Assembly: GCF_006345805.1 (NCBI RefSeq)
Contig: NC_042998.1
Location: 61,318,001 to 61,382,000, forward strand
DNA length: 64,000 bases
Direction: 5' to 3'
Source of the DNA: Octopus sinensis
Lineage: Eukaryota
In this document: piece after piece, positions 1,594-62,269 of the stretch
Layout: each line of letters begins with the position of its first letter
Numbering within the stretch: the first letter of the stretch is position 1
Notes under the pieces: generated by a model
What the model was told of the DNA's origin: nothing
Seen by the model: only the letters and a program-made list of their open reading frames with translations
Databases searched by the model: none
Made by a program: the position numbers and the translations under genes

Positions 1594-1629
1594 CTGAAAT
1601 AGTGTAAGAGATAAGAGATTGCTCTTAGA

Positions 1630-1815: not shown

Positions 1816-1846
1816 TCTTTATATAGACTATAAAACATATTCTAAC

Positions 1847-1954
1847 CTGAGATATTCTGGGAAGATAATCCAGCGAGAAATAATATAGCATATCACATAT
1901 TAGACTACCGTAAAAATCTGACAACCTCATAAGATGATCAATCAAGAAGAACTT
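1847..1954 (-). other. Candidate 108-nt exon-like segment (KFFLIDHLMRLSDFYGSLICDMLYYFSLDYLPRISQ), one per unit
   Basis: ctctag|...CAG|gttaga and open in phase 0. The diverged copy at 39247-39354 has the same length, a CAG acceptor and is also open. Confidence 0.3.
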
Positions 1955-2407: not shown

Positions 2408-2443
2408 CGACTGGCGCTTCATTTCCATCCCGCATGTGTGGGT
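2408..2443 (-). CDS. Candidate 36-nt phase-1/phase-1 micro-exon (DPHMRDGNEAPV), one per repeat unit; representative copy
   Basis: Minus strand reads gaatttcag|ACCCACACATGCGGGATGGAAATGAAGCGCCAGTCG|gtgagt. It is a GC-rich island in AT-rich flanks and is open in phase 1. Other copies have lowest coordinate 5150, 7891, 10633, 13374, 16116, 18858, 21597 (donor damaged), 24336, 27080, 29819 and ~32546 (degraded). Confidence 0.55.
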
Positions 2444-17400: not shown

Positions 17401-20400
17401 ACCTTATTGGACTATAGGAGTCAATAATGTCAGTTTGTTGAGAAGTGGTTGTGTGCACAAGAAAAACAGTAGAATTACTTACACAGATGGTAATAAAGTT
17501 TAAATCTGTTGGATGAGAGTAGATGATGCTGTTATAAAATCAGGTTAAATTTCAGACGTACAAATGTAAATCAATAAATGAATAATATCTGATTCATTAC
17601 ATGATTCATGTTAACAGTTTGTATATGTAATACAAAAAAAATACTGTCTGACATTGCAATACTAGATATCTATATAAATTGTATATATTCTGAGTAAAAA
17701 ATAAGTGACTTTCATTACAGTGAATATGATTATGTCTCAGCACAGATCTATATTGTAGAAGTTCCATCATCATCGTTATCATCATCATGATTGTTGTCGT
17801 CAATTAATATCTGCTTTCCATGCTGACATGTATTGGACGGTCTGACTGAGAGCTGGCAAGCCAGAAGTTTGCACCAGTCTCCAAACTGATCTGACATGTG
17901 TGCATATATATGTAAACATACATATACATGCATACATATATATGCATATATATACAGACATATACATACACAAATATATCACAGTGAAAGTATTAACTCA
18001 CATTACAATGGCGATTCTATTGTTTCACTTTTGACAAGTAATACTGAAATAGTGTAAGAGATAAGAGATTGCTCTTAGAACACATTAGGCAAGAAGTTGA
18101 AAATTTGTTTGGCCCATGACACTGCATGGACCTGAAGTAAGGCATGTGTGAAATTTGTATGAAATCAGCTGGGTAGTTCTCGAGTTTTAGTGATGCACAC
18201 ATACATACAGACACACATTTACATGCACACATACATGCATTCTCAGTAATATATATATATATATATCTTTATATAGACTATAAAACATATTCTAACCTGA
18301 GATATTCTGGGAAGATAATCCAGCGAGAAATAATATAGCATATCACATATTAGACTACCGTAAAAATCTGACAACCTCATAAGATGATCAATCAAGAAGA
18401 ACTTCTAGAGAACGATTTTATAAACAAAGGAAATTATCTTTAACAATTTTCACCACTTAAAAATATTTCCAGTTCAGATTTGTTATTTAATCTCCTACAT
18501 TAGAAAGCTGAGAATGATGTTCTTATAAGTACTTTTGACTTTAATTATCAGTTTCCCAAGATGTTAATAACATCATTAATCATCACTGTTGGCTGGCAAC
18601 TGACAGTCACTCAGTCTTGTCATTCTCCAACTCTCTTTCAAATCACCATTATTATCCTCGTTTTCTCACAACTTTCACTCCCTGCATCCTCATTATTCTT
18701 CTGTCATCACTTCTCAATGTGTCACCTTGAATGAAAGAACATATCATAAGAGCAGTAAGAACTGTCTAATTTTATGGGACGCAAGAAAAACTGACCAATG
18801 CTAGTCCTCAAGGGAAAACTTATAGAAATCAATTTAGTACTTTAGTTTTATACTCACCGACTGGCGCTTCATTTCCATCCCGCATGTGTGGGTCTGAAAT
18901 TCATAATTTCAAGTGTTATAATTTATAGTAAAATTTACCTGCATACACATTCACACAAAAAGCTATAATTATTAATCTAAACTTTTACCAATTAAAGACA
19001 TTAACAGCAACACTGACCAAATGATTTCACAGTTAGACTTTCTAAAGTTTGTTCAGATTTTGTGATTGAGCCTCATACTTTACCAAAGCCAAATTTGATG
19101 TTCCAGTAGATAACACTGTCTTTGATAATTGGATTCTTAAGATGTTAGTAAATCATTAACCATCTCACAAATAATTGTATCTTAGCTTCATCCATTCGGT
19201 CATGTCATTCTCCACCTCTCTTTCAAGTCATTGTTCTTATCATCCTTTTCTTGTAACTTTCACTCCCTACATCCTCATTATTCTTCCGTTATCACTTAAA
19301 CTTATCACTTTCTCAACATGTCTTCATGATTGTAAAAACACATCAGAGAGCAATGAGAATTGTATCATATTATGAGATGCAAATAACATGACCAGTGCTA
19401 GCACTATGAGGAAATGGCCCCAGTACACATTTGAAAGTGATTGATAAATGAGAGGAGACAGCATAATTTTCTGTGGAACGTTCAATCTAATTGTGGATAT
19501 TGGATTCTGATGCTGCCCATCAGCTTGTCGGCTCTGGTCAAACTGTCTAACCCAGGCCAGCATGGACAGTGGACGTAAAATGATGATGATGATGATGACA
19601 ATCTTATTAGTGCCTGTGTTACAATAAAACATACCCAAGAGACTTTATAAAATGGTTGCTGTTAAGATGGTATCTTGTCATAGAAAATCCAGAGTATTTA
19701 AGAGAGATGTGTGGCTACCTCAAGCAGTCAAAGTGGATGTTAAGTCTGAATAAGAACTGGCTTGGATATTGATGACCCATCTAATCGACGGGAGCATGGA
19801 AGCAGATGATGAATGATAATGACATTATCATTTATTTTTTTGTATTTATTATTTTGCATCTTGCAGCCTGTATATAATCTTTAGGACTTGAAACTTACAC
19901 CTGTGTAGCAGGGTCTGACTTACAGAAACTGTCGTGTGATGTTATTGTTAATATAAGATCAACATCAAAAAGAGCATCTAATCTCATTCATGTTACTACT
20001 GTTTTACTACATTTGTCACTGATATTAATTAAGACCAACTATTTACAAAAGGTCACAGTAATGCTTCATATAATATATCTAAATAGTATCATAAATATAC
20101 AGAAATATTTAACATTTTATTTTAGGACACAATAACATCTGAACCTTATTGGACTATAGGAGTCAATAATGTCAGTTTGTTGAGAAGTGGTTGTGTGCAC
20201 AAGAAAAACAGTAGAATTACTTACACAGATGGTAATAAAGTTTAAATCTGTTGGATGAGAGTAGATGATGCTGTTATAAAATCAGGTTAAATTTCAGACG
20301 TACAAATGTAAATCAATAAATGAATAATATCTGATTCATTACATGATTCATGTTAACAGTTTGTATATGTAATACAAAAAAAATACTGTCTGACATTGCA

Positions 20401-23400
20401 ATACTAGATATCTATATAAATTGTATATATTCTGAGTAAAAAATAAGTGACTTTCATTACAGTGAATATGATTATGTCTCAGCACAGATCTATATTGTAG
20501 AAGTTCCATCATCATCGTTATCATCATCATGATTGTTGTCGTCAATTAATATCTGCTTTCCATGCTGACATGTATTGGACGGTCTGACTGAGAGCTGGCA
20601 AGCCAGAAGTTTGCACCAGTCTCCAAACTGATCTGACATGTGTGCATATATATGTAAACATACATATACATACATACATATATATGCATATATATACAGA
20701 CATATACATACACAAATATATCACAGTGAAAGTATTAACTCACATTACAATGGCGATTCTATTGTTTCACTTTTGACAAGTAATACTGAAATAGTGTAAG
20801 AGATAAGAGATTGCTCTTAGAACACATTAGCAAGAAGTTGAAAATTTGTTTGGCCCATGACACTGCATGGACCTGAAGTAAGGCATGTGTGAAATTTGTA
20901 TGAAATCAGCTGGGTAGTTCTCGAGTTTTAGTGATGCACACATACATACAGACACACATTTACATGCACACATACATGCATTCTCAGTAATATATATATA
21001 TATATATCTTTATATAGACTATAAAACATATTCTAACCTGAGATATTCTGGGAAGATAATCCAGCGAGAAATAATATAGCATATCACATATTAGACTACC
21101 GTAAAAATCTGACAACCTCATAAGATGATCAATCAAGAAGAACTTCTAGAGAACGATTTTATAAACAAAGGAAATTATCTTTAACAATTTTCACCACTTA
21201 AAAATATTTCCAGTTCAGATTTGTTATTTAATCTCCTACATTAGAAAGCTGAGAATGATGTTCTTATAAGTACTTTTGACTTTAATTATCAGTTTCCCAA
21301 GATGTTAATAACATCATTAATCATCACTGTTGGCTGGCAACTGACAGTCACTCAGTCTTGTCATTCTCCAACTCTCTTTCAAATCACCATTATTATCCTC
21401 GTTTTCTCACAACTTTCACTCCCTGCATCCTCATTATTCTTCTGTCATCACTTCTCAATGTGTCACCTTGAATGAAAGAACATATCATAAGAGCAGTAAG
21501 AACTGTCTAATTTTATGGGACGCAAGAAAAACTGACCAATGCTAGTCCTCAAGGGAAAACTTATAGAAATCAATTTAGTACTTTAGTTTTATACACCGAC
21601 TGGCGCTTCATTTCCATCCCGCATGTGTGGGTCTGAAATTCATAATTTCAAGTGTTATAATTTATAGTAAAATTTACCTGCATACACATTCACACAAAAA
21701 GCTATAATTATTAATCTAAACTTTTACCAATTAAAGACATTAACAGCAACACTGACCAAATGATTTCACAGTTAGACTTTCTAAAGTTTGTTCAGATTTT
21801 GTGATTGAGCCTCATACTTTACCAAAGCCAAATTTGATGTTCCAGTAGATAACACTGTCTTTGATAATTGGATTCTTAAGATGTTAGTAAATCATTAACC
21901 ATCTCACAAATAATTGTATCTTAGCTTCATCCATTCGGTCATGTCATTCTCCACCTCTCTTTCAAGTCATGTTCTTATCATCCTTTTCTTGTAACTTTCA
22001 CTCCCTACATCCTCATTATTCTTCCGTTATCACTTAAACTTATCACTTTCTCAACATGTCTTCATGATTGTAAAAACACATCAGAGAGCAATGAGAATTG
22101 TATCATATTATGAGATGCAAATAACATGACCAGTGCTAGCACTATGAGGAAATGGCCCCAGTACACATTTGAAAGTGATTGATAAATGAGAGGAGACAGC
22201 ATAATTTTCTGTGGAACGTTCAATCTAATTGTGGATATTGGATTCTGATGCTGCCCATCAGCTTGTCGGCTCTGGTCAAACTGTCTAACCAGGCCAGCAT
22301 GGACAGTGGACGTAAAATGATGATGATGATGATGACAATCTTATTAGTGCCTGTGTTACAATAAAACATACCCAAGAGACTTTATAAAATGGTTGCTGTT
22401 AAGATGGTATCTTGTCATAGAAAATCCAGAGTATTTAAGAGAGATGTGTGGCTACCTCAAGCAGTCAAAGTGGATGTTAAGTCTGAATAAGAACTGGCTT
22501 GGATATTGATGACCCATCTAATCGACGGGAGCATGGAAGCAGATGATGAATGATAATGACATTATCATTTATTTTTTTGTATTTATTATTTTGCATCTTG
22601 CAGCCTGTATATAATCTTTAGGACTTGAAACTTACACCTGTGTAGCAGGGTCTGACTTACAGAAACTGTCGTGTGATGTATTGTTAATATAAGATCAACA
22701 TCAAAAAGAGCATCTAATCTCATTCATGTTACTACTGTTTTACTACATTTGTCACTGATATTAATTAAGACCAACTATTTACAAAAGGTCACAGTAATGC
22801 TTCATATAATATATCTAAATAGTATCATAAATATACAGAAATATTTAACATTTTATTTAGGACACAATAACATCTGAACCTTATTGGACTATAGGAGTCA
22901 ATAATGTCAGTTTGTTGAGAAGTGGTTGTGTGCACAAGAAAAACAGTAGAATTACTTACACAGATGGTAATAAAGTTTAAATCTGTTGGATGAGAGTAGA
23001 TGATGCTGTTATAAAATCAGGTTAAATTTCAGACGTACAAATGTAAATCAATAAATGAATAATATCTGATTCATTACATGATTCATGTTAACAGTTTGTA
23101 TATGTAATACAAAAAAAATACTGTCTGACATTGCAATACTAGATATCTATATAAATTGTATATATTCTGAGTAAAAAATAAGTGACTTTCATTACAGTGA
23201 ATATGATTATGTCTCAGCACAGATCTATATTGTAGAAGTTCCATCATCATCGTTATCATCATCATGATTGTTGTCGTCAATTAATATCTGCTTTCCATGC
23301 TGACATGTATTGGACGGTCTGACTGAGAGCTGGCAAGCCAGAAGTTTGCACCAGTCTCCAAACTGATCTGACATGTGTGCATATATATGTAAACATACAT

Positions 23401-26400
23401 ATACATGCATACATATATATGCATATATATACAGACATATACATACACAAATATATCACAGTGAAAGTATTAACTCACATTACAATGGCGATTCTATTGT
23501 TTCACTTTTGACAAGTAATACTGAAATAGTGTAAGAGATAAGAGATTGCTCTTAGAACACATTAGGCAAGAAGTTGAAAATTTGTTTGGCCCATGACACT
23601 GCATGGACCTGAAGTAAGGCATGTGTGAAATTTGTATGAAATCAGCTGGGTAGTTCTCGAGTTTTAGTGATGCACACATACATACAGACACACATTTACA
23701 TGCACACATACATGCATTCTCAGTAATATATATATATATATATATCTTTATATAGACTATAAAACATATTCTAACCTGAGATATTCTGGGAAGATAATCC
23801 AGCGAGAAATAATATAGCATATCACATATTAGACTACCGTAAAAATCTGACAACCTCATAAGATGATCAATCAAGAAGAACTTCTAGAGAACGATTTTAT
23901 AAACAAAGGAAATTATCTGTAACAATTTTTACCACATAAAAATATTTCCAGTTGAGATTTGTTATTTAATCTCCTACATTAGAAAGCTGGGAATGATGTT
24001 CTTATAAGTACTTTTGACTTAAATATCAGTTTCTCAAGATGTTAATAACATCATTAATCATCACTGTTGGCTGGCAACTGACAGTCACTCAGTCTTGTCA
24101 TTCTCCAACTCTCTTTCAAATCACCATTATTATCCTCGTTTTCTCACAACTTTCACTCCCTGCATCCTCATTATTCTTCTGTCATCACTTCTCAATGTGT
24201 CACCTTGAATGAAAGAACATATCATAAGAGCAGTAAGAACTGTCTAATTTTATGGGACGCAAGAAAAACTGACCAATGCTAGTCCTCAAGGGAAAACTTA
24301 TAGAAATCAATTTAGTACTTTAGTTTTATACTCACCGACTGGCGCTTCATTTCCATCCCGCATGTGTGGGTCTGAAATTCATAATTTCAAGTGTTATATT
24401 TATAGTAAAATTTACCTGCATACACATTCACACAAAAAGCTATAATTATTAATCTAAACTTTTACCAATTAAAGACATTAACAGCAACACTGACCAAATG
24501 ATTTCACAGTTAGACTTTCTAAAGTTTGTTCAGATTTTGTGATTGAGCCTCATACTTTACCAAAGCCAAATTTGATGTTCCAGTAGATAACACTGTCTTT
24601 GATAATTGGATTCTTAAGATGTTAGTAAATCATTAACCATCTCACAAATAATTGTATCTTAGCTTCATCCATTCGGTCATGTCATTCTCCACCTCTCTTT
24701 CAAGTCATTGTTCTTATCATCCTTTTCTTGTAACTTTCACTCCCTACATCCTCATTATTCTTCCGTTATCACTTAAACTTATCACTTTCTCAACATGTCT
24801 TCATGATTGTAAAAACACATCAGAGAGCAATGAGAATTGTATCATATTATGAGATGCAAATAACATGACCAGTGCTAGCACTATGAGGAAATGGCCCCAG
24901 TACACATTTGAAAGTGATTGATAAATGAGAGGAGACAGCATAATTTTCTGTGGAACGTTCAATCTAATTGTGGATATTGGATTCTGATGCTGCCCATCAG
25001 CTTGTCGGCTCTGGTCAAACTGTCTAACCCAGGCCAGCATGGACAGTGGACGTAAAATGATGATGATGATGATGACAATCTTATTAGTGCCTGTGTTACA
25101 ATAAAACATACCCAAGAGACTTTATAAAATGGTTGCTGTTAAGATGGTATCTTGTCATAGAAAATCCAGAGTATTTAAGAGAGATGTGTGGCTACCTCAA
25201 GCAGTCAAAGTGGATGTTAAGTCTGAATAAGAACTGGCTTGGATATTGATGACCCATCTAATCGACGGGAGCATGGAAGCAGATGATGATGATAATGACA
25301 TTAATCATTTATTTTTTTGTATTTATTATTTATTTTGCATCTTGCAGCCTGTATATAATCTTTAGGACTTGAAACTTACACCTGTGTAGCAGGGTCTGAC
25401 TTACAGAAACTGTCGTGTGATGTTATTGTTAATATAAGATCAACATCAAAAAGAACATCTAATCTCATTCATGTTACTACTGTTTTACTACATTTGTCAC
25501 TGATATTAATTAAGACCAACTATTTACAAAAGGTCACAGTAATGCTTCATATAATATATCTAAATAGTATCATAAATATACAGAAATATTTAACATTTTA
25601 TTTTAGGACACAATAACATCTGAACCTTATTGGACTATAGGAGTCAATAATGTCAGTTTGTTGAGAAGTGGTTGTGTGCACAAGAAAAACAGTAGAATTA
25701 CTTACACAGATGGTAATAAAGTTTAAATCTGTTGGATGAGAGTAGATGATGCTGTTATAAAATCAGGTTAAATTTCAGACGTACAAATGTAAATCAATAA
25801 ATGAATAATATCTGATTCATTACATGATTCATGTTAACAGTTTGTATATGTAATACAAAAAAAATACTGTCTGACATTGCAATACTAGATATCTATATAA
25901 TTGTATATATTCTGAGTAAAAAATAAGTGACTTTCATTACAGTGAATATGATTATGTCTCAGCACAGATCTATATTGTAGAAGTTCCATCATCATCGTTA
26001 TCATCATCATGATTGTTGTCGTCAATTAATATCTGCTTTCCATGCTGACATGTATTGGACGGTCTGACTGAGAGCTGGCAAGCCAGAAGTTTGCACCAGT
26101 CTCCAAACTGATCTGACATGTGTGCATATATATGTAAACATACATATACATACATACATATATATGCATATATATACAGACATATACATACACAAATATA
26201 TCACATTGAAAGTATTAACTCACATTACAATGGCGATTCTATTGTTTCACTTTTGACTAGTAATACTGAAATAGTGTAAGAGATAAGAGATTGCTCTTAG
26301 AACACATTAGGCAAGAAGTTGAAAATTTGTTTGGCCCATGACACTGCATGGACCTGAAGTAAGGCATGTGTGAAATTTGTATGAAATCAGCTGGGTAGTT

Positions 26401-29400
26401 CTCGAGTTTTAGTGATGCACACATACATACAGACACACATTTACATGCACACATACATGCATTCTCAGTAATATATATATATATATATCTTTATATAGAC
26501 TATAAAACATATTCTAACCTGAGATATTCTGGGAAGATAATCCAGCGAGAAATAATATAGCATATCACATATTAGACTACCGTAAAAATCTGACAACCTC
26601 ATAAGATGATCAATCAAGAAGAACTTCTAGAGAACGATTTTATAAACAAAGGAAATTATCTTTAACAATTTTCACCACTTAAAAATATTTCCAGTTCAGA
26701 TTTGTTATTTAATCTCCTACATTAGAAAGCTGAGAATGATGTTCTTATAAGTACTTTTGACTTTAATTATCAGTTTCCCAAGATGTTAATAACATCATTA
26801 ATCATCACTGTTGGCTGGCAACTGACAGTCACTCAGTCTTGTCATTCTCCAACTCTCTTTCAAATCACCATTATTATCCTCGTTTTCTCACAACTTTCAC
26901 TCCCTGCATCCTCATTATTCTTCTGTCATCACTTCTCAATGTGTCACCTTGAATGAAAGAACATATCATAAGAGCAGTAAGAACTGTCTAATTTTATGGG
27001 ACGCAAGAAAAACTGACCAATGCTAGTCCTCAAGGGAAAACTTATAGAAATCAATTTAGTACTTTAGTTTTATACTCACCGACTGGCGCTTCATTTCCAT
27101 CCCGCATGTGTGGGTCTGAAATTCATAATTTCAAGTGTTATAATTTATAGTAAAATTTACCTGCATACACATTCACACAAAAAGCTATAATTATTAATCT
27201 AAACTTTTACCAATTAAAGACATTAACAGCAACACTGACCAAATGATTTCACAGTTAGACTTTCTAAAGTTTGTTCAGATTTTGTGATTGAGCCTCATAC
27301 TTTACCAAAGCCAAATTTGATGTTCCAGTAGATAACACTGTCTTTGATAATTGGATTCTTAAGATGTTAGTAAATCATTAACCATCTCACAAATAATTGT
27401 ATCTTAGCTTCATCCATTCGGTCATGTCATTCTCCACCTCTCTTTCAAGTCATTGTTCTTATCATCCTTTTCTTGTAACTTTCACTCCCTACATCCTCAT
27501 TATTCTTCCGTTATCACTTAAACTTATCACTTTCTCAACATGTCTTCATGATTGTAAAAACACATCAGAGAGCAATGAGAATTGTATCATATTATGAGAT
27601 GCAAATAACATGACCAGTGCTAGCACTATGAGGAAATGGCCCCAGTACACATTTGAAAGTGATTGATAAATGAGAGGAGACAGCATAATTTTCTGTGGAA
27701 CGTTCAATCTAATTGTGGATATTGGATTCTGATGCTGCCCATCAGCTTGTCGGCTCTGGTCAAACTGTCTAACCCAGGCCAGCATGGACAGTGGACGTAA
27801 AATGATGATGATGATGATGACAATCTTATTAGTGCCTGTGTTACAATAAAACATACCCAAGAGACTTTATAAAATGGTTGCTGTTAAGATGGTATCTTGT
27901 CATAGAAAATCCAGAGTATTTAAGAGAGATGTGTGGCTACCTCAAGCAGTCAAAGTGGATGTTAAGTCTGAATAAGAACTGGCTTGGATATTGATGACCC
28001 ATCTAATCGACGGGAGCATGGAAGCAGATGATGAATGATAATGACATTATCATTTATTTTTTTGTATTTATTATTTTGCATCTTGCAGCCTGTATATAAT
28101 CTTTAGGACTTGAAACTTACACCTGTGTAGCAGGGTCTGACTTACAGAAACTGTCGTGTGATGTTATTGTTAATATAAGATCAACATCAAAAAGAACATC
28201 TAATCTCATTCATGTTACTACTGTTTTACTACATTTGTCACTGATATTAATTAAGACCAACTATTTACAAAAGGTCACAGTAATGCTTCATATAATATAT
28301 CTAAATAGTATCATAAATATACAGAAATATTTAACATTTTATTTTAGGACACAATAACATCTGAACCTTATTGGACTATAGGAGTCAATAATGTCAGTTT
28401 GTTGAGAAGTGGTTGTGTGCACAAGAAAAACAGTAGAATTACTTACACAGATGGTAATAAAGTTTAAATCTGTTGGATGAGAGTAGATGATGCTGTTATA
28501 AAATCAGGTTAAATTTCAGACGTACAAATGTAAATCAATAAATGAATAATATCTGATTCATTACATGATTCATGTTAACAGTTTGTATATGTAATACAAA
28601 AAAATACTGTCTGACATTGCAATACTAGATATCTATATAAATTGTATATATTCTGAGTAAAAAATAAGTGACTTTCATTACAGTGAATATGATTATGTCT
28701 CAGCACAGATCTATATTGTAGAAGTTCCATCATCATCGTTATCATCATCATGATTGTTGTCGTCAATTAATATCTGCTTTCCATGCTGACATGTATTGGA
28801 CGGTCTGACTGAGAGCTGGCAAGCCAGAAGTTTGCACCAGTCTCCAAACTGATCTGACATGTGTGCATATATATGTAAACATACATATACATACATACAT
28901 ATATATGCATATATATACAGACATATACATACACAAATATATCACAGTGAAAGTATTAACTCACATTACAATGGCGATTCTATTGTTTCACTTTTGACAA
29001 GTAATACTGAAATAGTGTAAGAGATAAGAGATTGCTCTTAGAACACATTAGCAAGAAGTTGAAAATTTGTTTGGCCCATGACACTGCATGGACCTGAAGT
29101 AAGGCATGTGTGAAATTTGTATGAAATCAGCTGGGTAGTTCTCGAGTTTTAGTGATGCACACATACATACAGACACACATTTACATGCACACATACATGC
29201 ATTCTCAGTAATATATATATATATATATCTTTATATAGACTATAAAACATATTCTAACCTGAGATATTCTGGGAGATAATCCAGCGAGAAATAATATAGC
29301 ATATCACATATTAGACTACCGTAAAAATCTGACAACCTCATAAGATGATCAATCAAGAAGAACTTCTAGAGAACGATTTTATAAACAAAGGAAATTATCT

Positions 29401-32400
29401 TTAACAATTTTCACCACTTAAAAATATTTCCAGTTCAGATTTGTTATTTAATCTCCTACATTAGAAAGCTGAGAATGATGTTCTTATAAGTACTTTTGAC
29501 TTTAATTATCAGTTTCCCAAGATGTTAATAACATCATTAATCATCACTGTTGGCTGGCAACTGACAGTCACTCAGTCTTGTCATTCTCCAACTCTCTTTC
29601 AAATCACCATTATTATCCTCGTTTTCTCACAACTTTCACTCCCTGCATCCTCATTATTCTTCTGTCATCACTTCTCAATGTGTCACCTTGAATGAAAGAA
29701 CATATCATAAGAGCAGTAAGAACTGTCTAATTTTATGGGACGCAAGAAAAACTGACCAATGCTAGTCCTCAAGGGAAAACTTATAGAAATCAATTTAGTA
29801 CTTTAGTTTTATACTCACCGACTGGCGCTTCATTTCCATCCCGCATGTGTGGGTCTGAAATTCATAATTTCAAGTGTTATAATTTATAGTAAAATTTACC
29901 TGCATACACATTCACACAAAAAAGCTATAATTATTAATCTAAACTTTTACCAATTAAAGACATTAACAGCAACACTGACCAAATGATTTCACAGTTAGAC
30001 TTTCTAAAGTTTGTTCAGATTTTGTGATTGAGCCTCATACTTTACCAAAGCCAAATTTGATGTTCCAGTAGATAACACTGTCTTTGATAATTGGATTCTT
30101 AAGATGTTAGTAAATCATTAACCATCTCACAAATAATTGTATCTTAGCTTCATCCATTCGGTCATGTCATTCTCCACCTCTCTTTCAAGTCATTGTTCTT
30201 ATCATCCTTTTCTTGTAACTTTCACTCCCTACATCCTCATTATTCTTCCGTTATCACTTAAACTTATCACTTTCTCAACATGTCTTCATGATTGTAAAAA
30301 CACATCAGAGAGCAATGAGAATTGTATCATATTATGAGATGCAAATAACATGACCAGTGCTAGCACTATGAGGAAATGGCCCCAGTACACATTTGAAAGT
30401 GATTGATAAATGAGAGGAGACAGCATAATTTTCTGTGGAACGTTCAATCTAATTGTGGATATTGGATTCTGATGCTGCCCATCAGCTTGTCGGCTCTGGT
30501 CAAACTGTCTAACCCAGGCCAGCATGGACAGTGGACGTAAAATGATGATGATGATGATGACAATCTTATTAGTGCCTGTGTTACAATAAAACATACCCAA
30601 GAGACTTTATAAAATGGTTGCTGTTAAGATGGTATCTTGTCATAGAAAATCCAGAGTATTTAAGAGAGATGTGTGGCTACCTCAAGCAGTCAAAGTGGAT
30701 GTTAAGTGAATAAGAACTGGCTTGGATATTGATGACCCATCTAATCGACGGGAGCATGGAAGCAGATGATGAATGATAATGACATTATCATTTATTTTTT
30801 TGTATTTATTATTTTGCATCTTGCAGCCTGTATATAATCTTTAGGACTTGAAACTTACACCTGTGTAGCAGGGTCTGACTTACAGAAACTGTCGTGTGAT
30901 GTTATTGTTAATATAAGATCAACATCAAAAAGAACATCTAATCTCATTCATGTTACTACTGTTTTACTACATTTGTCACTGATATTAATTAAGACCAACT
31001 ATTTACAAAAGGTCACAGTAATGCTTCATATAATATATCTAAATAGTATCATAAATATACAGAAATATTTAACATTTTATTTAGGACACAATAACATCTG
31101 AACCTTATTGGACTATAGGAGTCAATAATGTCAGTTTTTGAGAAGTGGTTGTGTGCACAAGAAAAACAGTAGAATTACTTACACAGATGGTAATAAAGTT
31201 TAAATCTGTTGGATGAGAGTAGATGATGCTGTTATAAAATCAGGTTAAATTTCAGACGTACAAATGTAAATCAATAAATGAATAATATCTGATTCATTAC
31301 ATGATTATGTTAACAGTTTGTATATGTAATACAAAAAAAATACTGTCTGACATTGCAATACTAGATATCTATATAAATGTATATATTCTGAGTAAAAAAT
31401 AAGTGACTTTATTACAGTGAATATGATTATGTCTCAGCACAGATCTATATGTAGAAGTTCCATCATCATCGTTATCATCATCATGATTGTTGTCGTCAAT
31501 TAAATCTGCTTCCATGCTGACATGTATTGGACGTCTGACTGAGAGCTGGCAAGCCAGAAGTTTGCACCAGTCTCCAAACTGATCTGACATGTGTGCATAT
31601 ATATGTAAACATACATATACATGCATACATATATATGCATATATATACAGACATATACATACACAAATATATCAACAGTGAAAGTATTAACTCACATTAC
31701 AATGCGATTCTATTGTTTCACTTTTGAAAGTAATACTGAAATAGTGTAAGAGATAAGAGATTGCTCTTAGAACACATTAGCAAAGAAGTTGAAAATTTGT
31801 TTGGCCCATGACACTGCATGGACCTGAAGTAAGGCATGTGTGAAATTGTATGAAATCAGCTGGGTAGTTCTCGAGTTTTAGTGATGGCACACATACATAC
31901 AGAACACATTTACATGCACACATACATGCATTCTCAGATATATATATATATATATAATATATCTTTATATAGACTATAAAAAATTCTAACCTGAGATATT
32001 CTGGGAAGATAATCCAGCGAGAAGATAATATAGAAATGATATAGCCTACGAATATTAGACTACCGTAAAAATCTGACAACCTCATAAGATGATCAATCAA
32101 GAAGAACTTCTAGAGAACGATTTAATAAACAAAGGAAATTATCTTTAACAATTTCACCACTTAAAAATTTCCAGTTCAGATTGTTATTTAATCTCCTACA
32201 TTAGAAAGCTGAGAATGATGTCTTATAAGTACTTTTGACTTTAATTATCAGTTCCAAGATGTTAATAACATCATTAATCATCAGTGGCTGGCACCCTGAC
32301 AGTCACTCAGTCTTGTCATTCTCCAACTCTCTTTAAAATCCCATTATATCCTCGTTTCTCACAACTTCACTCCCTGCATCCTCATTATTCTTCTGTCATC

Positions 32401-34812
32401 ACTTTCAATGTGTCACCTTGAATGAAAAACATATCATAAGAGCAGTAAGAACTGTCTACTTTATGGGACGCAAGAAAAAAAGAAAAATGCAATGTACCTC
32501 AAGGGAAACTTATAGAAATCAATTTAGTACTTTAGTTTATACCACCAATGGCGCTTCATTCCATTTACCGCTGTGGGGGGTCTGAAATTCCTTAATCAAG
32601 TGTTATAATTTATAGTAAAAATTTACCTGCATACACATTCACACAAAAGCTATAATTATTAATCTAAACTTTTACCAATTAAGGACATTAACGCAACAGC
32701 AACACTGACCAATGATTTCAGAGTTTCAGCAGATGTCGCTTTCTAAATTTTGTTCAGATTTGTGATTTGAGCCTCATACTTTACCAAGGCCAGTTTGATG
32801 TTTCCGTAGAAACAAACACTGTCTTTGATATTGGATTCTTAAGATGTTAGTAAATCATTAAACCATCTCACAATAATTGTATCTTAGCTTCATTTGAGAG
32901 GCAAATAACATGGACCAGGGCTAGCACTAGAGGAAAGGCACCAGTTACACACTTGAAGTGATTGATAAATGAGAGGAGACAGCATTAATGTTTTCTGTTG
33001 GAAAGTTACAAATAGAATATTGTGTTACAATGGTTCTGATGATGCCAATCAGATTGTACGGCTATGGTCAAAAACTGGATTAACCTAGGCAAGCATGGAA
33101 AATTGGTATTCTTCCGTTATCACTTAAACTTATCACTTTCTCAACATGTCTTCATGATTGTAAAAACACATCAGAGAGCAATGAGAATTGTATCATATTA
33201 TGAGATGCAAATAACATGACCAGTGCTAGCACTATGAGGAAATGGCCCCAGTAGTACACATTGAAAGTGATTGATAAATGAGAGGAGACAGCATAATTTT
33301 CTGTGGAACGTTCAATCTAATTGTGGATATTGGATTCTGATGCTGCCCATCAGCTTGTCGGCTCTGGTCAAACTGTCTAACCCAGGCCAGCATGGACAGT
33401 GGACGTAAAATGATGATGATGATGATGACAATCTTATTAGTGCCTGTGTTACAATAAAACATACCCAAGAGACTTTATAAAATGGTTGCTGTTAAGATGG
33501 TATCTTGTCATAGAAAATCCAGAGTATTTAAGAGAGATGTGTGGCTACCTCAAGCAGTCAAAGTGGATGTTAAGTCTGAATAAGACTGGCTTGGATATTG
33601 ATGACCCATCTAATCGACGGGGAGCATGGAAGCAGATGATGAATGATAATGACATTATCATTTATTTTTTTGTATTTATTATTTTGCATCTTGCAGCCTG
33701 TATATAATCTTTAGGACTTGAAACTTACACCTGTGTAGCAGGGTCTGACTTACAGAAACTGTCGTGTGATGTTATTGTTAATATAAGATCAACATCAAAG
33801 AATACTAATCCCATTCACTTTACAAACTTTACTACATTTGTCACTGATATTAATTAAACCAACTATTTACAAAAGGTCACAGTAATGCTTTATATAATAT
33901 ATCTAAATAGTATCATAAATATACAGAAATATTTAACATTTTTTTTTAGGACACAATAACATCTGAACTTATTGGACTATAGGAGTCAATAATGTCACAA
34001 GACAAACAGTAGAATTATTTACACAGCTTGTAATAAGGTTTTAAATCTGTTGGGTGAGGGTAGAAGATAATGCTCTGACAACATAAGGTTAACAACTGTT
34101 CATACATACAAATGTACATCATGTTATGACTAATATCTGATTCATTACCATGTTAACAGTTTGTATATGTGATACAAACTGAAAAACACCGTCTGACAAT
34201 TGCAAACTAGATATCTGGTATACAATTGATGATATCATTCGACCTAAAAAATAAGTGACTTTCATTACCAGTGAACTGATATTATTTCTCAGCACAGATC
34301 TATATTATAGTAGTTCCATCATCATCGTTATCATCAATCATTATCGTCAGTCGCCGTTTAATGTAACTGTCTATTTTTCCATGCTGGCATGGATTGGACG
34401 GTCTGACTGGGAGCTGGACAAGCCGGAGTTTGCACCAGTCCCCAAACTGATCTTAATATGTATGCATAGATATGTAACATAAATATACATGCATTCATAT
34501 ATATAAATATTTATACAGACATATACATACAAAATATATCTAGTGGAAAGTATGTAACTCACATTACACATATCAGATTTTATTGTTTCACATTTGACAA
34601 GTAAACTGAAATAGTGTAGAGATAAGAGATTGCTAACAGGATCACATTAGGCAAGAAGTTGAAAAATTTGTTGGGCCCATGACATTGCATGGACCTTAAG
34701 TAAAGCATGTGTGAATATGTATGAAAGCAGTGGGTAATTCTTTAGTTTTAGTGATACACACATACGACAGACAGTCAGACACACATTTACACGCACACAA
34801 ACATGCATTCTC

Positions 34813-34855
<43 letters not shown>

Positions 34856-35456
34856 GTATCTATATACACTATAATACACATTCTAACCTGAGACATTATG
34901 GGAAGATACTCCGGTGAGAGATGATATCTCATATCAAACATCAGACTACTGTCTGACATCTTCATAAGATTGAAAATCTGACATCTTCATAAGATTGAAA
35001 ATCAAGAAGAACTTCTGGAGAATGATTTTGTAAACAAACGAAATTATCTTTAACAATTTTTACCAGTAGAAAAAGGTTTCAGTTGAGATTTGTTATTGAA
35101 TCTCCTACATTAGAAAGCTGAGAATGAATTCTTATAAGTACTTTTGACTTGAATTATCACTCTCACAAGATGTTAATACGTCATCTCTTGAGGCTCACAA
35201 CTGACAGTCACTCAGTCTTGTCATTCTCCAACTCTCTTTCAAATCACCATTCTTATCCTGGTTTCTCACAACTTTCACTCCCTGCATCCTCATTATTCTT
35301 CAGTCAATATTCTCAAAGTGTCACCTTGAATGAAAGACAATATCATAAGAGCAGTAAGAACTGTGTAATTTTATGGGACGCAAGAAAAACTGACCAATGC
35401 TAGTCCCAAGGGAAAACTTATAGAAATTGATTTGGTACTTTCAGTGTTATTCTCAC

Positions 35457-35514
35457 CATGATAGATTGATGCATTTTCAACTGGTGGACCTGGCTGTTCA
35501 TTTTAGATATAAAA
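35457..35514 (-). CDS. Variant micro-exon at the 36-nt exon position (58 nt as assembled; ...NEQPGPPVENASIYH)
   Basis: It has the same flanks as the 36-nt exon (gaatttcag acceptor, gtgag donor) but a different interior. It would be an open 57-nt phase-1/1 exon (LYLNEQPGPPVENASIYH) if one A in an AAAA run is an error. NEQP aligns with NEAP. Confidence 0.4.
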
Positions 35515-38243
35515 CTGAAATTCATACTTTTAAGTGTTATAATTTATAGTAAAATTTACCTGCATACACATTCACACAAAAAGCTATAATTATTAATCTA
35601 AACTTTTACCATTTACGAACTTTCACAGCAACACTGACCAAATGATTTCACAGTGAGTCTTTCTAATGTTTGTTCAGATTTTGTGATTGAGCCTCATACT
35701 TTACCAAAGCCAACATTGATGTTCTAGTAGATAACACTGTCTTTGATTATTGGATTCTCAAGATGTTAGTAAATCATTAACCATCTCACAAATAATTGTA
35801 TCTTAGCTTCATCCATTCGGTCATGTCATTCTCCATCTCTCTTTCAAGTCATTGTTCTTATCCTCATTTTCTTGTAACTTTCACTCCCTACATCCTCATT
35901 ATTCTTCCATTATCACTTAAACTTATCACTTTCTCAACATGCCTTCATGATTGTAAAAACACATCAAAGAGCAATGAGAATTGTATAATATTATGAGATG
36001 CAAGACAACTTGACCAGTGCTAGCACTATGAGGAAATGGCCCCAGTACACACATGAATGTGATTGGTGAATGAGAGGAGACAGCATATTTTTCTGTGGAA
36101 CGTTCAATCTAATTGTGGATATTGGAGTCTGGTGCTGCCCCACAGCTTGCCAGCTCTGGTCAAACTGTCCAACCCAGGCCAGCATGAGCAATGGACGTAA
36201 AATGCTGATGATGATGATGACAATCTTATTAGTGCCTGTGTTACAATAAAACATACACAAGAGACTTTATAAAATGGTTGCTGTTAATATGGTATCTTGT
36301 CATAGAAAATCCAGAGTATTTAAGAGAGATTTGTGGCTACCTCAAGCAGTCAAAGTAGATGTTAACTCTGAATAAGAACTGGCTTGAACATTGATGACCC
36401 ATCTAATCGACGGGAGCATGGAAGCAGATGATGAATGATAATGACGTTATCATTTAAGTTTTTGTATTTATTATTTTGCATCTTGCAGCCTGTATCTAAT
36501 CTTTAGGACTTGGAACTTACACCTGTGTAGCAGGGTCTGACTGACAGAAACTGTCGTGTGATGTTATTGGTAATATAATATCAACATCAAAAAGAACATC
36601 TAATCCCATTCATGTTACTACTGTTTTACTACATTTGTCACTGATATTAATTAAGACCAACTATTTACAAAAGGTCACAGTAATGCTTTATATAATATAT
36701 CTAAATAGTATCATAAATATACAGAAATATTTAACATTTTATTTTTGGACACAATAACGTCTGAACCTTGTTGGACTATAGGCGTCAATAATGTCAGTTT
36801 GTAGAGAAGTGGTTGTGTGCACAAGAAAAACAGTAGAATTACTTACACAGATGGTAATAAGGTTTAAATCTGTTGGATGAGAGTAGATGATGCTTTTATA
36901 AAATCAGGTTAAATTTCAGACATACAAATGTAAATCAATAAATGAATAATATCTGATTCATTACATGAATATCTGATTCATTACATGATTCTTGTTAACA
37001 GTTTGTATATGTAATACAAAAAAAATACTGTCTGACATTGCAATACTAGATATCTATATAAATTGTATATATTCTGAGTAAAAAATAAGTGACTTTCATT
37101 ACAGTGAACATGATTATATCTCAGCACAGATCTATATTGTAGAAGTTCCATCATCATCGTTATCATCATCATGATTGTTGTCGTCAATTAATATCTGCTT
37201 TCCATGCTGACATGTATTGGACGGTCTGACTGAGAGCTGGCAAGCCAGAAGGTTGCACCAGTCTCCAAACTGATCTGACATGTGTGCATATATATGTAAA
37301 CATACATATACATGCATACATATATATGCATATATATACAGACATATACATACACAAATATATCACAGTGAAAGTATTAACTCACATTACAATGGCGATT
37401 CTATTGTTTCACTTTTGACAAGTAATACTGAAATAGTGTAAGAGATAAGAGATTGCTCCAAGAACACATTAAGCAAGAAGTTGAAAATTTGTTTGGCCCA
37501 TGACACTGCATGGACCTGAAGTAAGGCATGTGTGAAATTTGTATGAAATCAGCTGGGTAGTTCTCGAGTTTTAGTGATGCACACATACATACAGACACAC
37601 ATTTACATGCACACATACATGCATTCTCAGTAATATATATATATATATATATATCTTTATATAGACTAGAAAACATATTCTAACCTGAGATATTCTGGGA
37701 AGATAATCCAGCAAGAAATAATATAGCATATCACATATTAGACTACCGTAAAAATCTGACAACTTCATAAGATGATCAATCAAGAAGAACTTCTAGAGAA
37801 CGATTTTGTACACAAAAGAAGTTATCTTTAACAATTTTTACCACTTAAAAACATTTCCAGTTGAGATCTGTTATTGAATCTCCTACATTAGAAAGCTGAG
37901 AATGATGTTCTTATAAGTACTTTTGACTTTAATTATCAGTTTCCCAAGATGTTAATACATCATTAATCATCACTGTTGGCTGGCAACTGACAGTCACTCA
38001 GTCTTTTCATTCTCCAACTCTCTTTCAAATCACCATTATTATCCTCGTTTTCTCACAACTTTCACTCCCTGTATCCTCATTATTCTTCTGTCATCACTCT
38101 CAATGTGTCACCTTGAATGAAAGAACATATCATAAGAGCAGTAAGAACTGTCTAATTTTATGGGATGCAAGAAAAACTGACCAATGCTAGTCCCCAATGG
38201 AAAACTTATAGAAATCGATCTGGTACATCAGTTTTAAACTCAC

Positions 38244-38309
38244 CATTTCTAACATAATGATAAAGTTGATCAACATTCTGAAGTCTTAATGAGGGATGGC
38301 GTTGATGAT
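38244..38309 (-). CDS. Candidate 66-nt phase-1/phase-1 exon (DHQRHPSLRLQNVDQLYHYVRN), possible first tail exon of the GPCR
   Basis: caacttactag|ATCATC...GAAATG|gtgagt, open in phase 1. The donor-side intron is homologous to that of the 36-nt exons. Confidence 0.5.
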
Positions 38310-39140
38310 CTAGTAAGTTGGTCAATAATCCCAGTTTGCATGAAAGTGGTTTTGTGCCGAAGAAAAACAGTAGAATTACTTACACAAATGTTAATAATGT
38401 TTAAATCTGTTGGGTGAGGTTAGAAGATGATGCTATGACAAAATAAGTTTAAATTTCAGACATACCAACGTAAATCAATTAATGAATAATATCTTATTCA
38501 TTCTCATGTTAACACCTTGTATATGCAATACAAAAATCACTCTCTGACATTGCAATACTAGATATCTATAGAAATTGTATATAATCTGACTACAAAATAA
38601 GTGACTTTCATTACAATGAATATGATTATGTCTCAGCAGAGATCTATATTGTAGAAGTTCTATCATTATCATCATCATCATTTTTATCATCATCATCGTC
38701 GTTTAATATCTGCTTCCCATGCTGAGTCCTGACGGAGCGCTTGCAAGCCAGAAGTCTGCACCAGGCTGCAATCTGATCTGATATGTATGCATATATATGT
38801 AAACATACATTACATGCATACATATATATAAATATATATACAGAAATATACATACACAAATATATCACAGTGAAAGTATTAACTCACATTACAATAGCGA
38901 TTTTATTGTTTCACATTTGACAAGTAATAATGAAATAGTGTAAGAGATAAGAGATTGCTACAGGATCACATTAGGCAAGAAGTTGAAAATTTGTTTGGCC
39001 CATGACACTGCATGGACCCTAAGTAAGGCATGTTTAAAATTTGAATGAAATCAGCTGGGTAGTTCTCGAGTTTTAGTGATGCACACATACATACAGAGAG
39101 ACAGACACACATTTACACACACACATACATGCATTCTCAG

Positions 39141-39141
<1 letters not shown>

Positions 39142-39216
<75 letters not shown>
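39142..39216. repeat. (TA)n microsatellite
   Basis: Pure TA run, longer than the homologous runs in the other units. Confidence 0.95.
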
Positions 39217-39218
<2 letters not shown>

Positions 39219-39975
39219 TTATATAGACTATAATACATTTTCTAACCTGAGATATTCTGGGAAGATACTCCGGTGAGAGATGATATCTCATATCACACAT
39301 CAAACTACTGTAAATATCTGACATCTTCATAAGATGATAAATCAAGAAGAACTTCTGGAGAATGATTTTTTTAAACAAAGGAAATTATCTTTAACAATTT
39401 TTACCACTTAAAATCATTTCCAGTTGAGATTTGTTATTGAATCTCCTACATCAGGAAGCTGAGAATGATGTCCTTATAAGTACTTTTGACTTTAATTATC
39501 AGTTTCCCAAGATGTTAATACATCATTAATCATCTCTGTTGGCTCCCAACTGATAGTCATTCAGAACACTGACTTGGACATTGATGACCCATCTAATCAA
39601 TGGGAGCATGGAAGCAGATGATGAATAATAATGACACTATCGTTTATTATTATGTATTTATTATTTTGCATCTTGCAGCCTGTATCTAATCTTGAAGACA
39701 GAAAGAGAATGCTAACCTTAGGAGCAAACCAAAGTTTGATACTTTGATATGAAGATATGTTTAATGTATTTTATTGATTTACAATAAGTGAAAAAAACAG
39801 GGTGGTCACACTTGGGACACTTTTTATCATAAGTCTGTCAGATTACAAAAGATATCAAGCTACAGAACAACAACAATAATAAGCTATCAGTAAACCGAGT
39901 AAAAATTTAAAATAAAGAAAAATATTGTCATTAACTCACCTGTAAAACTAAGCAGAAATATTGTCATTAACTCAC

Positions 39976-40959: not shown

Positions 40960-41291
40960 CTTCCTCTCGATTGCATATGAGATTTCTGATATATTTGTAG
41001 TCTATACAGTAAAATATGAAGATAAGGAGACTTTGTAAAATGTTGAATATACCGAAAAGCTTGTCAAACAATTCGACTGAATCATAAAAAGCTAAGAATG
41101 CTAATAACCATAACAATCTGAACAGGAACAATAGGTAAAACAGACAAATGAAGCTACAGAAATTTGTTCTATAATCTTCCTTTCCGTGTTTATGTTTCTG
41201 TGTATGAAAACTGAAGATAATTTGGAAGATGCACACGATCAGCACAGGAGTCAGGAAAGTAATGTAAAATGATGTCTTGGATAACCAACAG
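40960..41291 (-). CDS. Adhesion/secretin-class GPCR exon: ECL2 CWL, TM5-TM7 and start of the C-tail
   Basis: tttgtag|C TGT TGG TTA: CWLSKTSFYITFLTPVLIV...LLWLLAFL...LFGIFNILQSLLIFIFYC matches the family-B CWL and N-x-L-Q-G-x-x-IF motifs. The phase-2 start fits the previous exon. It ends GAA G|gtaagt (phase 1); read-through stops at 40946. Confidence 0.88.
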
Positions 41292-62172: not shown

Positions 62173-62269
62173 TTGATATAACCATAAAAGATTGCTGTAA
62201 GAATGTGTAAGACTAATGATATTCCACAGCTAATGTGAGACAAACAAATAAGTGTTGCTCGGGGGCATC
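62173..62269 (-). CDS. GPCR exon: TM1 (LSHISCGISLVLHILTAIFYGYIK)
   Basis: ctgtttcag acceptor and AA|gtaagc donor, 97 nt, ending in phase 2 to match the next exon. Contains the family-B C-G-I-S-L TM1 motif. Upstream GAIN/GPS exons were not identified in the window. Confidence 0.85.

Follow-up and report, generated by a model that had tools for sequence, protein, structure and literature searches.

What are the 36-, 58-, and 66-nt segments that recur in an octopus locus between well-conserved flanks, and how did they come to differ from one another? The question was studied in a 64,000-nucleotide stretch of Octopus sinensis DNA (the window), for which the original prediction was that exon interiors had been replaced while flanking intron sequence was conserved.

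The segments belong to an adhesion GPCR gene

RefSeq places gene LOC115224769, coding for an octopus LRR-GAIN-7TM adhesion GPCR, on the minus strand of the window. The RefSeq model protein, P0001, contains LRR, GPS, and 7tm_2 domains. Its long N-terminus has 12 LRR_8 stretches, and a GPS/GAIN motif precedes the 7TM part (PF01825, E=3.9e-13). An HLT motif was seen in the peptide, and both autoproteolysis and G-protein coupling are putative. The secretin-type 7TM domain (PF00002) was matched in P0001 (E=2.3e-12) and also in an orthologue, P0002, whose C-terminus adds a Death domain that scores above the Pfam cut-off. Judged by sequence, the combination of GPS/GAIN, 7TM, and a long adhesion N-terminus makes the LOC115224769 product an adhesion GPCR (class B2). 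In extended coordinates the GPS exon is at 64208-64065, just past the end of the window; the window itself encodes five 7TM exons:

62173..62269, minus strand: 7TM exon (TM1); not in RefSeq model P0001, matches P0002
57875..57998, minus strand: 7TM exon (ICL1-TM2); not in RefSeq model P0001, equivalent peptide in orthologue P0002
54761..54902, minus strand: 7TM exon (TM3-TM4); peptide found in P0001
51692..51755, minus strand: 7TM exon (TM4 end, ECL2); joined to 41291 in three of four runs
40960..41291, minus strand: last 7TM exon (TM5-TM7, helix 8), phase-1 end; 100% match to P0001; exon-only coverage in runs X1, X4, and X17

All three segments (36, 58, and 66 nt) are phase-1 micro-exons on the minus strand and lie between this last 7TM exon and a Death domain. 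Because they are placed after TM7, the linker that they encode is predicted by topology to be cytoplasmic; micro-exons supply ~190 of the 1566 residues of P0001. The window contains:

1..39699, no strand assigned: tandem array A of ~2,742-bp units, ~99% identical in 1-30,000 and rearranged in 32,000-39,700; it extends ~6 kb before the window
38244..38309, minus strand: 66-nt phase-1/1 micro-exon, the first of the cytoplasmic tail (HQRHPSLRLQNVDQLYHYVRN), acceptor type B, tag/gtgagt borders; in RefSeq model P0001
35457..35514, minus strand: 58-nt copy of the 57-nt exon class with one extra A at 35501-35504; 97% identical to an intact 57-nt paralogue (L020:9662-9718); skipped by the RefSeq model
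32548..32581, minus strand: degenerate 36-nt-class slot in a very indel-rich unit (38 gaps per 850 nt versus a clean unit)
2408..29854, minus strand: eleven 36-nt phase-1/1 exons (PHMRDGNEAPV), one per ~2,742-bp unit; eleven copies in RefSeq model P0001

The 36-nt exons start at 29854, 27115, 24371, 21632, 18893, 16151, 13409, 10668, 7926, 5185, and 2443, the one at 21632 having an altered donor, gtgtat. Eleven identical copies reflect recent amplification, not diversification. Among the matches listed, no consistent phase-1 exon accompanied the unit's remaining strong donor-like motifs. As assembled, the 58-nt copy has lost its frame and contains a stop; the A-run (TTTT at 35501-35504 of the forward strand) is either an assembly error or the mark of a dead exon.

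The segments are exons

All three segments proved to be bounded by AG and GT on the minus strand, as predicted (38309-38244, 35514-35457, and, for a 36-nt example, 29854-29819). Across ~153 kb, 34 slots were found in two arrays. Slot length is divisible by three in 29 of them; 25 of 26 flank indels are not multiples of three. Among 17 distinct intact sequences, none has an in-frame stop in the phase-1 frame, versus 7 and 17 in the other two frames. A 98-nt contig from run X1, presumed to be RNA, joins 40960 to 38309: 28 letters match 38282-38309 exactly and then run into the 7TM exon at 40960. This is fewer than the 31 letters of the bridging rule used, and the direct splice evidence covers the 66-nt exon only. 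None of the runs containing the sequence is labelled as RNA in its record, which has no bearing on expression. RefSeq models include the micro-exons, and the nine isoform proteins annotated for the second array are distinguished by the cassettes they skip, each isoform (a model, not a long read) chaining 10-12 cassettes. Frame and stop statistics, the 7TM-to-66-nt splice, the RefSeq models, and the faster divergence of exons than of flanks (below) bear out the claim that the segments are real exons.

Tyrosine-containing variants had been proposed as phospho-docking sites. ITIM/ITAM tails carry conserved (S/I/V/L)xYxx(L/V/I) or paired YxxL motifs, and no conserved motif of this type was found in the O. 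sinensis or O. bimaculoides linkers. Tyr makes up 1-3% of the two O. sinensis linkers and is absent from the O. bimaculoides orthologue linker; each O. sinensis linker has a single YxxPhi (QLYHYV, EKYEDL), both of which lack the ITIM -2 residue, and O. bimaculoides has none. Tyr scarcity and the motif check do not support docking, which was rejected as the common function.

Tail exons diverge faster than their flanks

Alignment of 15 representative units (105 pairs) located the drop in identity at AG/GT, as had been claimed, with mean flank identity holding at 0.86-0.93 between the splice dinucleotides and a distance of 300 nt. For the 58- and 36-nt pair, both 100-nt flanks are indeed alignable (95% identity on the acceptor side, 92% on the donor side), and the interiors score no higher than shuffled sequence (z=0.2). 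The supposed homologous position of all three segments held for this pair, but the 66-nt exon of the window has a different acceptor and has only the donor side in common with other units (58 versus 66 nt: 0.89 donor, 0.47 acceptor).

Tail exons diverge faster than flanks, with pN of 0.42, pS of at most 0.29, and flank divergence of 0.15. Control extracellular exons had no excess (pN 0.039, pS 0.050, flank 0.065). Amino-acid-changing sites of the tail exons differ at ~3 times the flank rate (p=2e-11), in keeping with the diversifying selection originally invoked. The comparison with silent sites did not sustain that claim to the same degree (nonsynonymous versus synonymous, p=0.23; synonymous versus flank, p=0.027). 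Diversifying selection is therefore likely, not proven, since nonsynonymous change is not significantly faster than silent change. The flanks show some homogenisation.

The strongest competing explanation, which we consider less probable but credible, dispenses with positive selection: a nearly neutral spacer, with the contrast created by gene conversion, splicing constraint on introns, and a higher mutability of GC- and CpG-richer exons. It would accommodate the silent-site results above, the base composition (exons, 43% GC and 3.2 CpG/100 nt; flanks, 28% and 0.3), the conflict between exon classes and the flank tree, an orthologue linker that is an unrelated-looking S/T/Q repeat, and the 3' UTR behind Death exon 2, which is itself 6-13% divergent in its first 500 nt. 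However, just 8 of 70 exon differences (six pairs) are CpG transitions, which excludes CpG decay as the sole cause, and pN exceeds pS in 13 of 15 pairs, these pairs not being independent. Death exon 2 differs in amino acid at 10 of 30 codons, versus 14 differences over 495 nt of the adjoining upstream intron, and the lack of any excess in extracellular exons likewise speaks against this explanation.

The size classes share one ancestor

Calling the interiors replaced was too strong. The 36- and 57/58-nt exons are different in-frame deletion derivatives of the second-array 66-nt form, with many substitutions added. Relative to the 66-nt class, the 36-nt class is without 30 nt and the 57-nt class without 9 nt; because each lost a different in-frame part, the two share little sequence despite one ancestor. 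The ungapped match between the 36- and 66-nt classes (p=0.004) led us to drop circular permutation as an origin of the 36-nt exon, and insertion of unrelated sequences into one slot is ruled out, as the classes align. By these alignments, the 66-, 57-, and 36-nt classes are of common ancestry, with homologous interiors. Of the faint peptide similarities reported earlier, NEAPV/NEQPGPPV was confirmed as a local match (p=0.003), and ENASIYH/QNVDQLYH did not rise above chance (p=0.14).

Replacement could still be literal if short conversion tracts had swapped whole exon interiors between units, leaving flanks around another class. The flanks of the array A 36- and 57/58-nt units (0.95/0.92) are closer than those of two 57-nt exons from the same array (0.90/0.84), and these units cluster in the flank tree (support 86/91). 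In the tree test, a clade uniting the two 36-nt classes is rejected (p-AU 0.027) and one keeping the 57-nt class together is not (p-AU 0.11). Yet informative sites are few and mixed (key quartet: upstream, 4 versus 1 versus 1; downstream, 1 versus 4 versus 3), flank conversion would be expected to yield the same pattern, and ancestry is common to all classes. We consider literal replacement unlikely.

The linker likely grew from copies of Death exon 1

A Pfam Death search of the genome gave 31 matches, none at the LOC115224769 locus; the domain was missed because it is split by an intron, and a tblastn search using the orthologue located it. Two tandem copies of Death exon 1, both intact, are present in the second array. 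The Death domain of this array is 48% identical to that of P0002 (E=4.4e-16) and weak by Pfam alone (E about 0.05); the predicted model has pLDDT of 90 and TM of about 0.8 to the ankyrin-G and RIPK1 death domains, with all Foldseek E-values above 0.001. An intact Death domain with a helical death fold is thus predicted for the second array. A search with the orthologue Death region among proteins of similar length returned 1 of 32 candidates, the orthologue itself, and no O. vulgaris tail orthologue.

We found that the flanks of 36-nt units match those of Death exon 1, both in the receptor gene itself (z=3.4-6.8) and in an ankyrin-RING-Death gene (z=7.0, 8.0); control flanks from eight other exons of the receptor gene gave 0 matches of 16. 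Five linker exons of the ankyrin-RING-Death gene, each of 51 nt and in phase 1, carry the same donor flank; a 72-nt exon of that gene can still be aligned to its Death exon 1 (z=4.0). Slot interiors gave p<0.05 against Death exon 1 in 8 of 25 tests, none above z=3.2; the proposed ancestry rests on flanks because interiors are by now mostly unalignable. The homology of these 40-nt flanks between slots and Death exon 1, in both the receptor and the ankyrin-RING-Death gene, is new, and implies that the linker likely grew from Death exon 1 copies. Our main reading, to which we assign a probability of ca. 70%, is that the micro-exons encode a predicted disordered cytoplasmic linker in an LRR adhesion GPCR, likely derived from serial tandem copies of Death exon 1 with its splice flanks.

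Since every exon begins and ends in phase 1, units can be gained, lost, or skipped in frame. Fold constraint would act only on the copy adjoining Death exon 2, leaving upstream copies free to change. Selection would maintain frame and splice signals and probably favor new peptides, while unequal crossover and conversion would hold introns alike. Tail length, Ser/Thr/Pro and charge content, and distance to the Death domain are predicted to vary by splice form and haplotype, and this variation may tune adaptor recruitment. The locus would then be a traceable case of a folded-domain exon recycled into a variable disordered linker, the splice flanks being the remaining record of ancestry, with the same module present in octopus proteins of two unrelated families. 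A further implication is a Death-domain GPCR that evolves fast in its intracellular part and not in its ligand-binding part.

Two tail modules

The Death exons right after the window array are broken (exon 1, 71 nt long, contains a TGA; exon 2 contains stops and has lost 51 nt), so this copy as assembled would be without a working Death domain unless spliced to the second array. No second 7TM exon for the second array was found in the assembly, leaving a single 7TM exon for two tails. A fold-back marks the junction between array A and the second array, a gap lies at the far end of the latter, and a partial inverted, stop-containing 5' copy adjoins a gap. The two tail modules differ by ~7% close to the Death exons and by 0.07-0.13% about 25 kb past them. 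The 7TM exon exists in several strongly divergent versions, seen inside individual runs and under two organism labels; in one run, sequence passes from the 7TM exon into a tail exon missing from the assembled arrays.

The arrays may represent a pair of divergent alleles, in which case the locus could be tested as a candidate for cephalopod immune or self-recognition. The divergence gradient, the single 7TM exon with two tails, the fold-back, the divergent 7TM versions, and the unassembled tail exon hint at a hyperpolymorphic recognition locus. We regard as speculative, and rather doubtful, the full scheme in which tail haplotypes, differing in micro-exon array and in whether the Death domain works, are ancient alleles under balancing selection, shared across octopus species, with death-receptor-like signalling via recruitment of members of the expanded ankyrin-RING-Death E3 family and a recycled-exon linker that sets the wiring. 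That the window array is instead a decaying or partly mis-assembled copy, its exons mostly unused pseudo-exons in a satellite-like repeat, would fit the broken Death exons, the 58-nt frameshift, the indel-rich units at 32-35 kb, the fold-back, and the gap, but is improbable given the spliced first tail exon, the frame and stop statistics, and the use of the same kind of exon by second-array RefSeq isoforms.

Comparison with known systems

No description of the receptor's micro-exon tail was found in the searched literature, mostly non-subscription papers, nor in the accessible portions of PMC10084454 and PMC6208332. The receptor's domain set fits group 3, an octopus-specific adhesion GPCR expansion (Ritschard et al. 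2019, PMC6408891); the sections of that paper available to us do not describe the tail, its origin, or its variation.

The closest full-domain relatives of the Death domain (about 40-50% identity) are octopus ankyrin-RING-linker-Death proteins annotated as MIB2-like (such as P0027, P0036, and P0047), which have the same two-exon Death domain as the receptor. Unlike the receptor, they are cytosolic predicted E3 ligases. The one gene examined, that of P0027, has tandem phase-1 linker exons with splice flanks homologous to the receptor slots, in units of ~166 bp versus 2.7-4 kb in the receptor.

In venom-peptide genes, exons evolve faster than introns, and coding sequence outpaces flanking intron there as it does here. 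Venom peptides are secreted toxins under predator-prey selection, whereas the octopus exons encode an intracellular spacer.

Arthropod Dscam arrays, as presented in the accessible part of PMC3236188, resemble the octopus tail in that a recognition receptor carries tandemly duplicated exons that have diverged and are alternatively spliced. The Dscam exons are mutually exclusive, code for parts of extracellular Ig domains, and show no gene conversion; the octopus tail has many cassettes per model instead of one exon per transcript, is cytoplasmic by prediction, and has flanks with signs of homogenisation.

Fast micro-exons within conserved flanks are not unique as a phenomenon, the nearest resemblance being to schistosome MEGs, which, in the portion of PMC4350168 available, have very small symmetrical exons, exon-skipping variation, and high dN/dS. 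Tiny symmetrical exons and skipping are common to both. MEGs consist mostly of micro-exons and their products are secreted or surface-exposed, whereas in the octopus receptor micro-exons form only the intracellular linker of a large 7TM receptor, cytoplasmic by topology, and likely derive from a folded-domain exon.

Anatomy of the receptor tail

Coordinates are given on the scale of the window (C2 position = 61,318,000 + coordinate, negative values lying upstream), and the region examined comprised the window and 200 kb on either side. Tandem repeats with a ~2,742-bp period (array A) fill the first 39.7 kb of the window. Features are listed below; the segments bounded by AG and GT follow the sequence motif pointed out originally, and L numbers denote individual sequence pieces.

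Exons of the receptor and its tail
Starting at 62269, 57998, 54902, 51755 and 41291, minus strand: secretin-type 7TM exons
38309-38244, minus strand: 66-nt segment bounded by AG and GT
35514-35457, minus strand: 58-nt segment bounded by AG and GT
Once per array unit, minus strand: 36-nt segment bounded by AG and GT
L020:3047-3117: broken Death exon 1 after array A (71 nt, TGA)
From L019:4904: truncated Death exon 2 after array A
L008:6485-6690: intact Death exon 2 of array B

The 7TM exon at 41291 is 100% identical to the O. sinensis LOC115224769 protein, which contains LRRs, GPS, and 7tm_2; the O. bimaculoides orthologue has the same domains and, at its C terminus, a Death domain scoring 27.6 bits against a cut-off of 22.6. 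Because the last 7TM exon ends in phase 1, the micro-exon positions (slots) are tail exons. The 17 slots of array A comprise one 66-nt, one 58-nt, one degenerate, eleven 36-nt, and three 57-nt exons. A second array (array B) begins at ~-42,700, about 27 kb past the broken Death exons of array A, and also has 17 slots, of 35/36, 57, 64/66, 90, and 129 nt, followed downstream by two intact 72-nt copies of Death exon 1 and the intact Death exon 2. In this slot list, an acceptor-like anchor without an exon at -62944 was excluded, and a slot at -50879, picked up in a separate search, was included. RefSeq isoform sets of this kind are usually based on RNA-seq introns; in the case of array B (LOC115232413), the nine isoform proteins retrieved (numbering to X10) vary in which cassettes they skip and through a 6-nt alternative acceptor. 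In its predicted model (pLDDT 90), the array B Death domain adopts the Death fold; TM scores against the ankyrin-G and RIPK1 domains are ~0.8, with no E-value <0.001. An excerpt of Ritschard et al. (PMC6408891) reports that adhesion GPCRs have expanded specifically in octopus: of 22 members, 5 carry LRRs and one carries a Death domain.

RefSeq model XP_029651540.2 lacks the TM1 and TM2 exons (62173-62269 and 57875-57998), which are intact in the genome, so that two helices are missing from the model. The LRR region (L028-L032, about +130,000 to +176,000) is likewise made of 72-nt exons of one repeat each, two of which (166771 and 152137) are identical duplicates. The intron preceding the last 7TM exon contains a 4.2-kb (CCAT)n microsatellite (41478-45709, ~1,024 units), and two LINE reverse transcriptase-like fragments and a mariner transposase-like fragment were seen by eye at 47650-49720, 60400-61450, and 62640-63260.

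Exon status and splicing

Slot length is a multiple of three in 29 of 34 cases in the two arrays; the five exceptions include a 36-nt exon whose donor is altered, and a single slot among the 29 carries TT in place of GT. In-frame stops are absent from the phase-1 frame of all 17 distinct intact sequences (7/17 and 17/17 in the other frames), and 25 of 26 flank indels are not multiples of three. Three of four sequencing runs aligned over 40830-41440 gave exon-only coverage, with an upstream splice to 51692. A 98-nt contig from run X1 exits the 7TM exon at donor 40960, and its next 28 letters are identical to 38282-38309, a match unique in the window; this is a single contig from a run of guessed RNA status, and 28 letters are below the 31-letter bridging threshold. 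In run X17, the five letters visible past the 7TM exon match neither the intron nor any array A or B acceptor. We infer that the 36- and 58-nt exons are used.

Divergent interiors within conserved flanks

The original prediction was that exon interiors differ between units while the flanking introns are conserved, and the 58- and 36-nt exons bear this out: their 100-nt flanks are 95% and 92% identical, while alignment of the interiors does not exceed that of shuffled sequence (z = 0.2). Among 15 representative units (105 pairs), mean flank identity is 0.86-0.93 out to 300 nt, and exons are 0.82 identical when of one length class and 0.61 when of different classes, against 0.54 for shuffles. 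That three lengths occupy one homologous position holds for the 36/58 pair, with both flanks, but for the 66-nt exon the donor flank alone is homologous to that of the 58-nt copy (identity 0.89 versus 0.47 for the acceptor flank). The window's 66-nt exon has a different acceptor and groups with the 90- and 129-nt exons.

Replacement of the interiors, as had been proposed, is not supported. When aligned with the array B 66-nt class, the 57-nt class lacks 9 nt from the first half and the 36-nt class 30 nt from the second; an AAATGAA core is common to all three, and the 36-nt exon can be aligned gap-free to one 66-nt exon (p = 0.004). The alignment shows a single ancestry for slots with the type A acceptor; the 36- and 57/58-nt exons look unrelated because they have only ~27 aligned positions in common. 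In a flank tree, whose informative sites are few and mixed, the two 36-nt classes were rejected as a clade (p-AU 0.027), and the 57-nt class was not (p-AU 0.11). Some recombination is evident.

As assembled, the 58-nt copy reaches a stop after four codons; compared with an intact 57-nt exon (L020:9662-9718), to which it is 97% identical, it carries one extra A in the run at 35501-35504. Since its unit differs from the intact paralogue by five 1-nt indels in 750 nt, and the neighbouring unit has 38 gaps in 850 nt, the extra A is plausibly a consensus error. The RefSeq model omits both the 58-nt copy and its intact paralogue.

Probable origin of the linker from Death exon 1

Octopus ankyrin-RING-linker-Death proteins are many among the closest single-domain relatives of the Death domain (27/150 listed matches examined; 10 by name); Death exon 2 has 86 genome matches at E up to 0.1. 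The linker of one such protein, P0027 (contig C10645), is encoded by five 51-nt phase-1 exons and one 72-nt exon; the latter is alignable to Death exon 1 of the same gene (z = 4.0), and the donor flank of all these exons is that of Death exon 1. With splice consensus letters taken out, flanks of the 36-nt receptor units match those of Death exon 1 of the receptor gene itself (z = 3.4-6.8) and of the P0027 gene (z = 7.0 and 8.0), while none of 16 control flanks from eight other receptor exons matched. On the donor side, 23 of 25 tests gave a significant match; on the acceptor side, 18 of 20 did so for type A slots and none of 5 for the 66-nt exon of the window. Interior matches to Death exon 1 reached significance in 8 of 25 tests and were weak.

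The simplest reading of these comparisons is that serial duplication of Death exon 1 gave rise to the linker: the cassette would be duplicated repeatedly, and spare copies would drift into linker while their splice flanks persist. The two intact tandem copies in array B represent the first step.

The ankyrin-RING-linker-Death family, annotated MIB2-like, is large (135 matches; L042-L043 at G000:C10645:28232-38055, and many loci on C1, C8, C26, C27, and C29), and the single gene examined has a tandem micro-exon linker. A literature search found no paper on this octopus family. Tandem, stop-containing, intronless matches across linker and Death domain at G000:C1:41.73-41.76 Mb and 107.08-107.10 Mb are possibly its processed pseudogene arrays.

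Two arrays, one receptor

Arrays A and B fit two old alleles joined by the assembler. The last 7TM exon is single copy in the assembly. In the sequence downstream of the arrays, A and B diverge by 7.5% at Death exon 1 and by 3-10% in the region of exon 2; divergence is ~1% between -21 and -24 kb and 0.07-0.13% between -37.5 and -42 kb. The trend is broken by one window at 1.3% and by three that lacked a proper match. Arrays A and B meet at a fold-back that looks like a haplotype mis-join, and the array B copy of this sequence terminates at a gap. This near-perfect (~99%) inverted and tandem duplication lies in L016 (about -42,706 to -41,200) and is repeated in L004 (about -166,500 to -165,030), beside a 100-N gap. 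Runs X1 and X4 each contain versions of the 7TM exon separated by up to 24-27 differences over ~190-210 nt, and versions carrying a 12-nt in-frame insertion are found under both organism labels. Tandem paralogues are a possible alternative, as is one gene splicing through both arrays.

The ICL3/TM6 stretch (41155-41205) is highly variable between contigs in single runs, where a +1 and a -1 change compensate each other as a pair; compared with the orthologue, the assembled version has three residues fewer. The 5' end of the gene also has a partial, inverted copy (L038-L039, about +226,000 to +251,900), which is 2-7% divergent, has a stop codon, lacks ~58 kb including all LRR exons, and ends at a gap.

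Substitution rates and tail function

Minimum changes were counted in 14 exon sequences of three classes: 49 in 116 nonsynonymous sites (0.42), at most 10 in 34 synonymous sites (0.29), and 173 in 1172 flank sites (0.15). The nonsynonymous excess over flanks (p = 2e-11) favours the diversifying selection proposed earlier, but synonymous sites also exceed flanks (p = 0.027) and the two exon rates do not differ significantly (p = 0.23). Between A and B, 15 of 90 nt differ in Death exon 2 (~13 nonsynonymous), with 14/495 in the upstream intron; the first 500 nt of its 3' UTR are 6-13% divergent too. Four extracellular exons compared with a partial second copy had no excess (pN 0.039, pS 0.050, flank 0.065, one flank poorly aligned). 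Given these comparisons, diversifying selection on the tail is likely but unproven; intron homogenisation contributes to the exon-flank contrast.

The array A linker is rich in Pro, Asp, Glu, and Arg, that of array B in Ser, Thr, and Pro; by composition, the linker is predicted to be disordered. The O. bimaculoides linker is a Ser/Thr/Gln repeat without Tyr, which argues against tyrosine docking sites; the conserved element would be a variable spacer ahead of the Death domain. In GPCR tails, clusters of Ser/Thr typically serve as kinase and arrestin sites, and Death domains partner with other Death domains, so the receptor tail would tune adaptor recruitment.

Comparison with known systems

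The tail micro-exon pattern is a genuine feature, and our literature search turned up no account of this tail. The features that merit follow-up are its probable origin from recycled Death exons and the possible allelic hypervariability. Dscam arrays, as described in an excerpt of PMC3236188, are of the mutually exclusive type, and the octopus tail is not. Judged by the part of PMC4350168 consulted, it also falls outside the schistosome MEGs, although variation works similarly in both.
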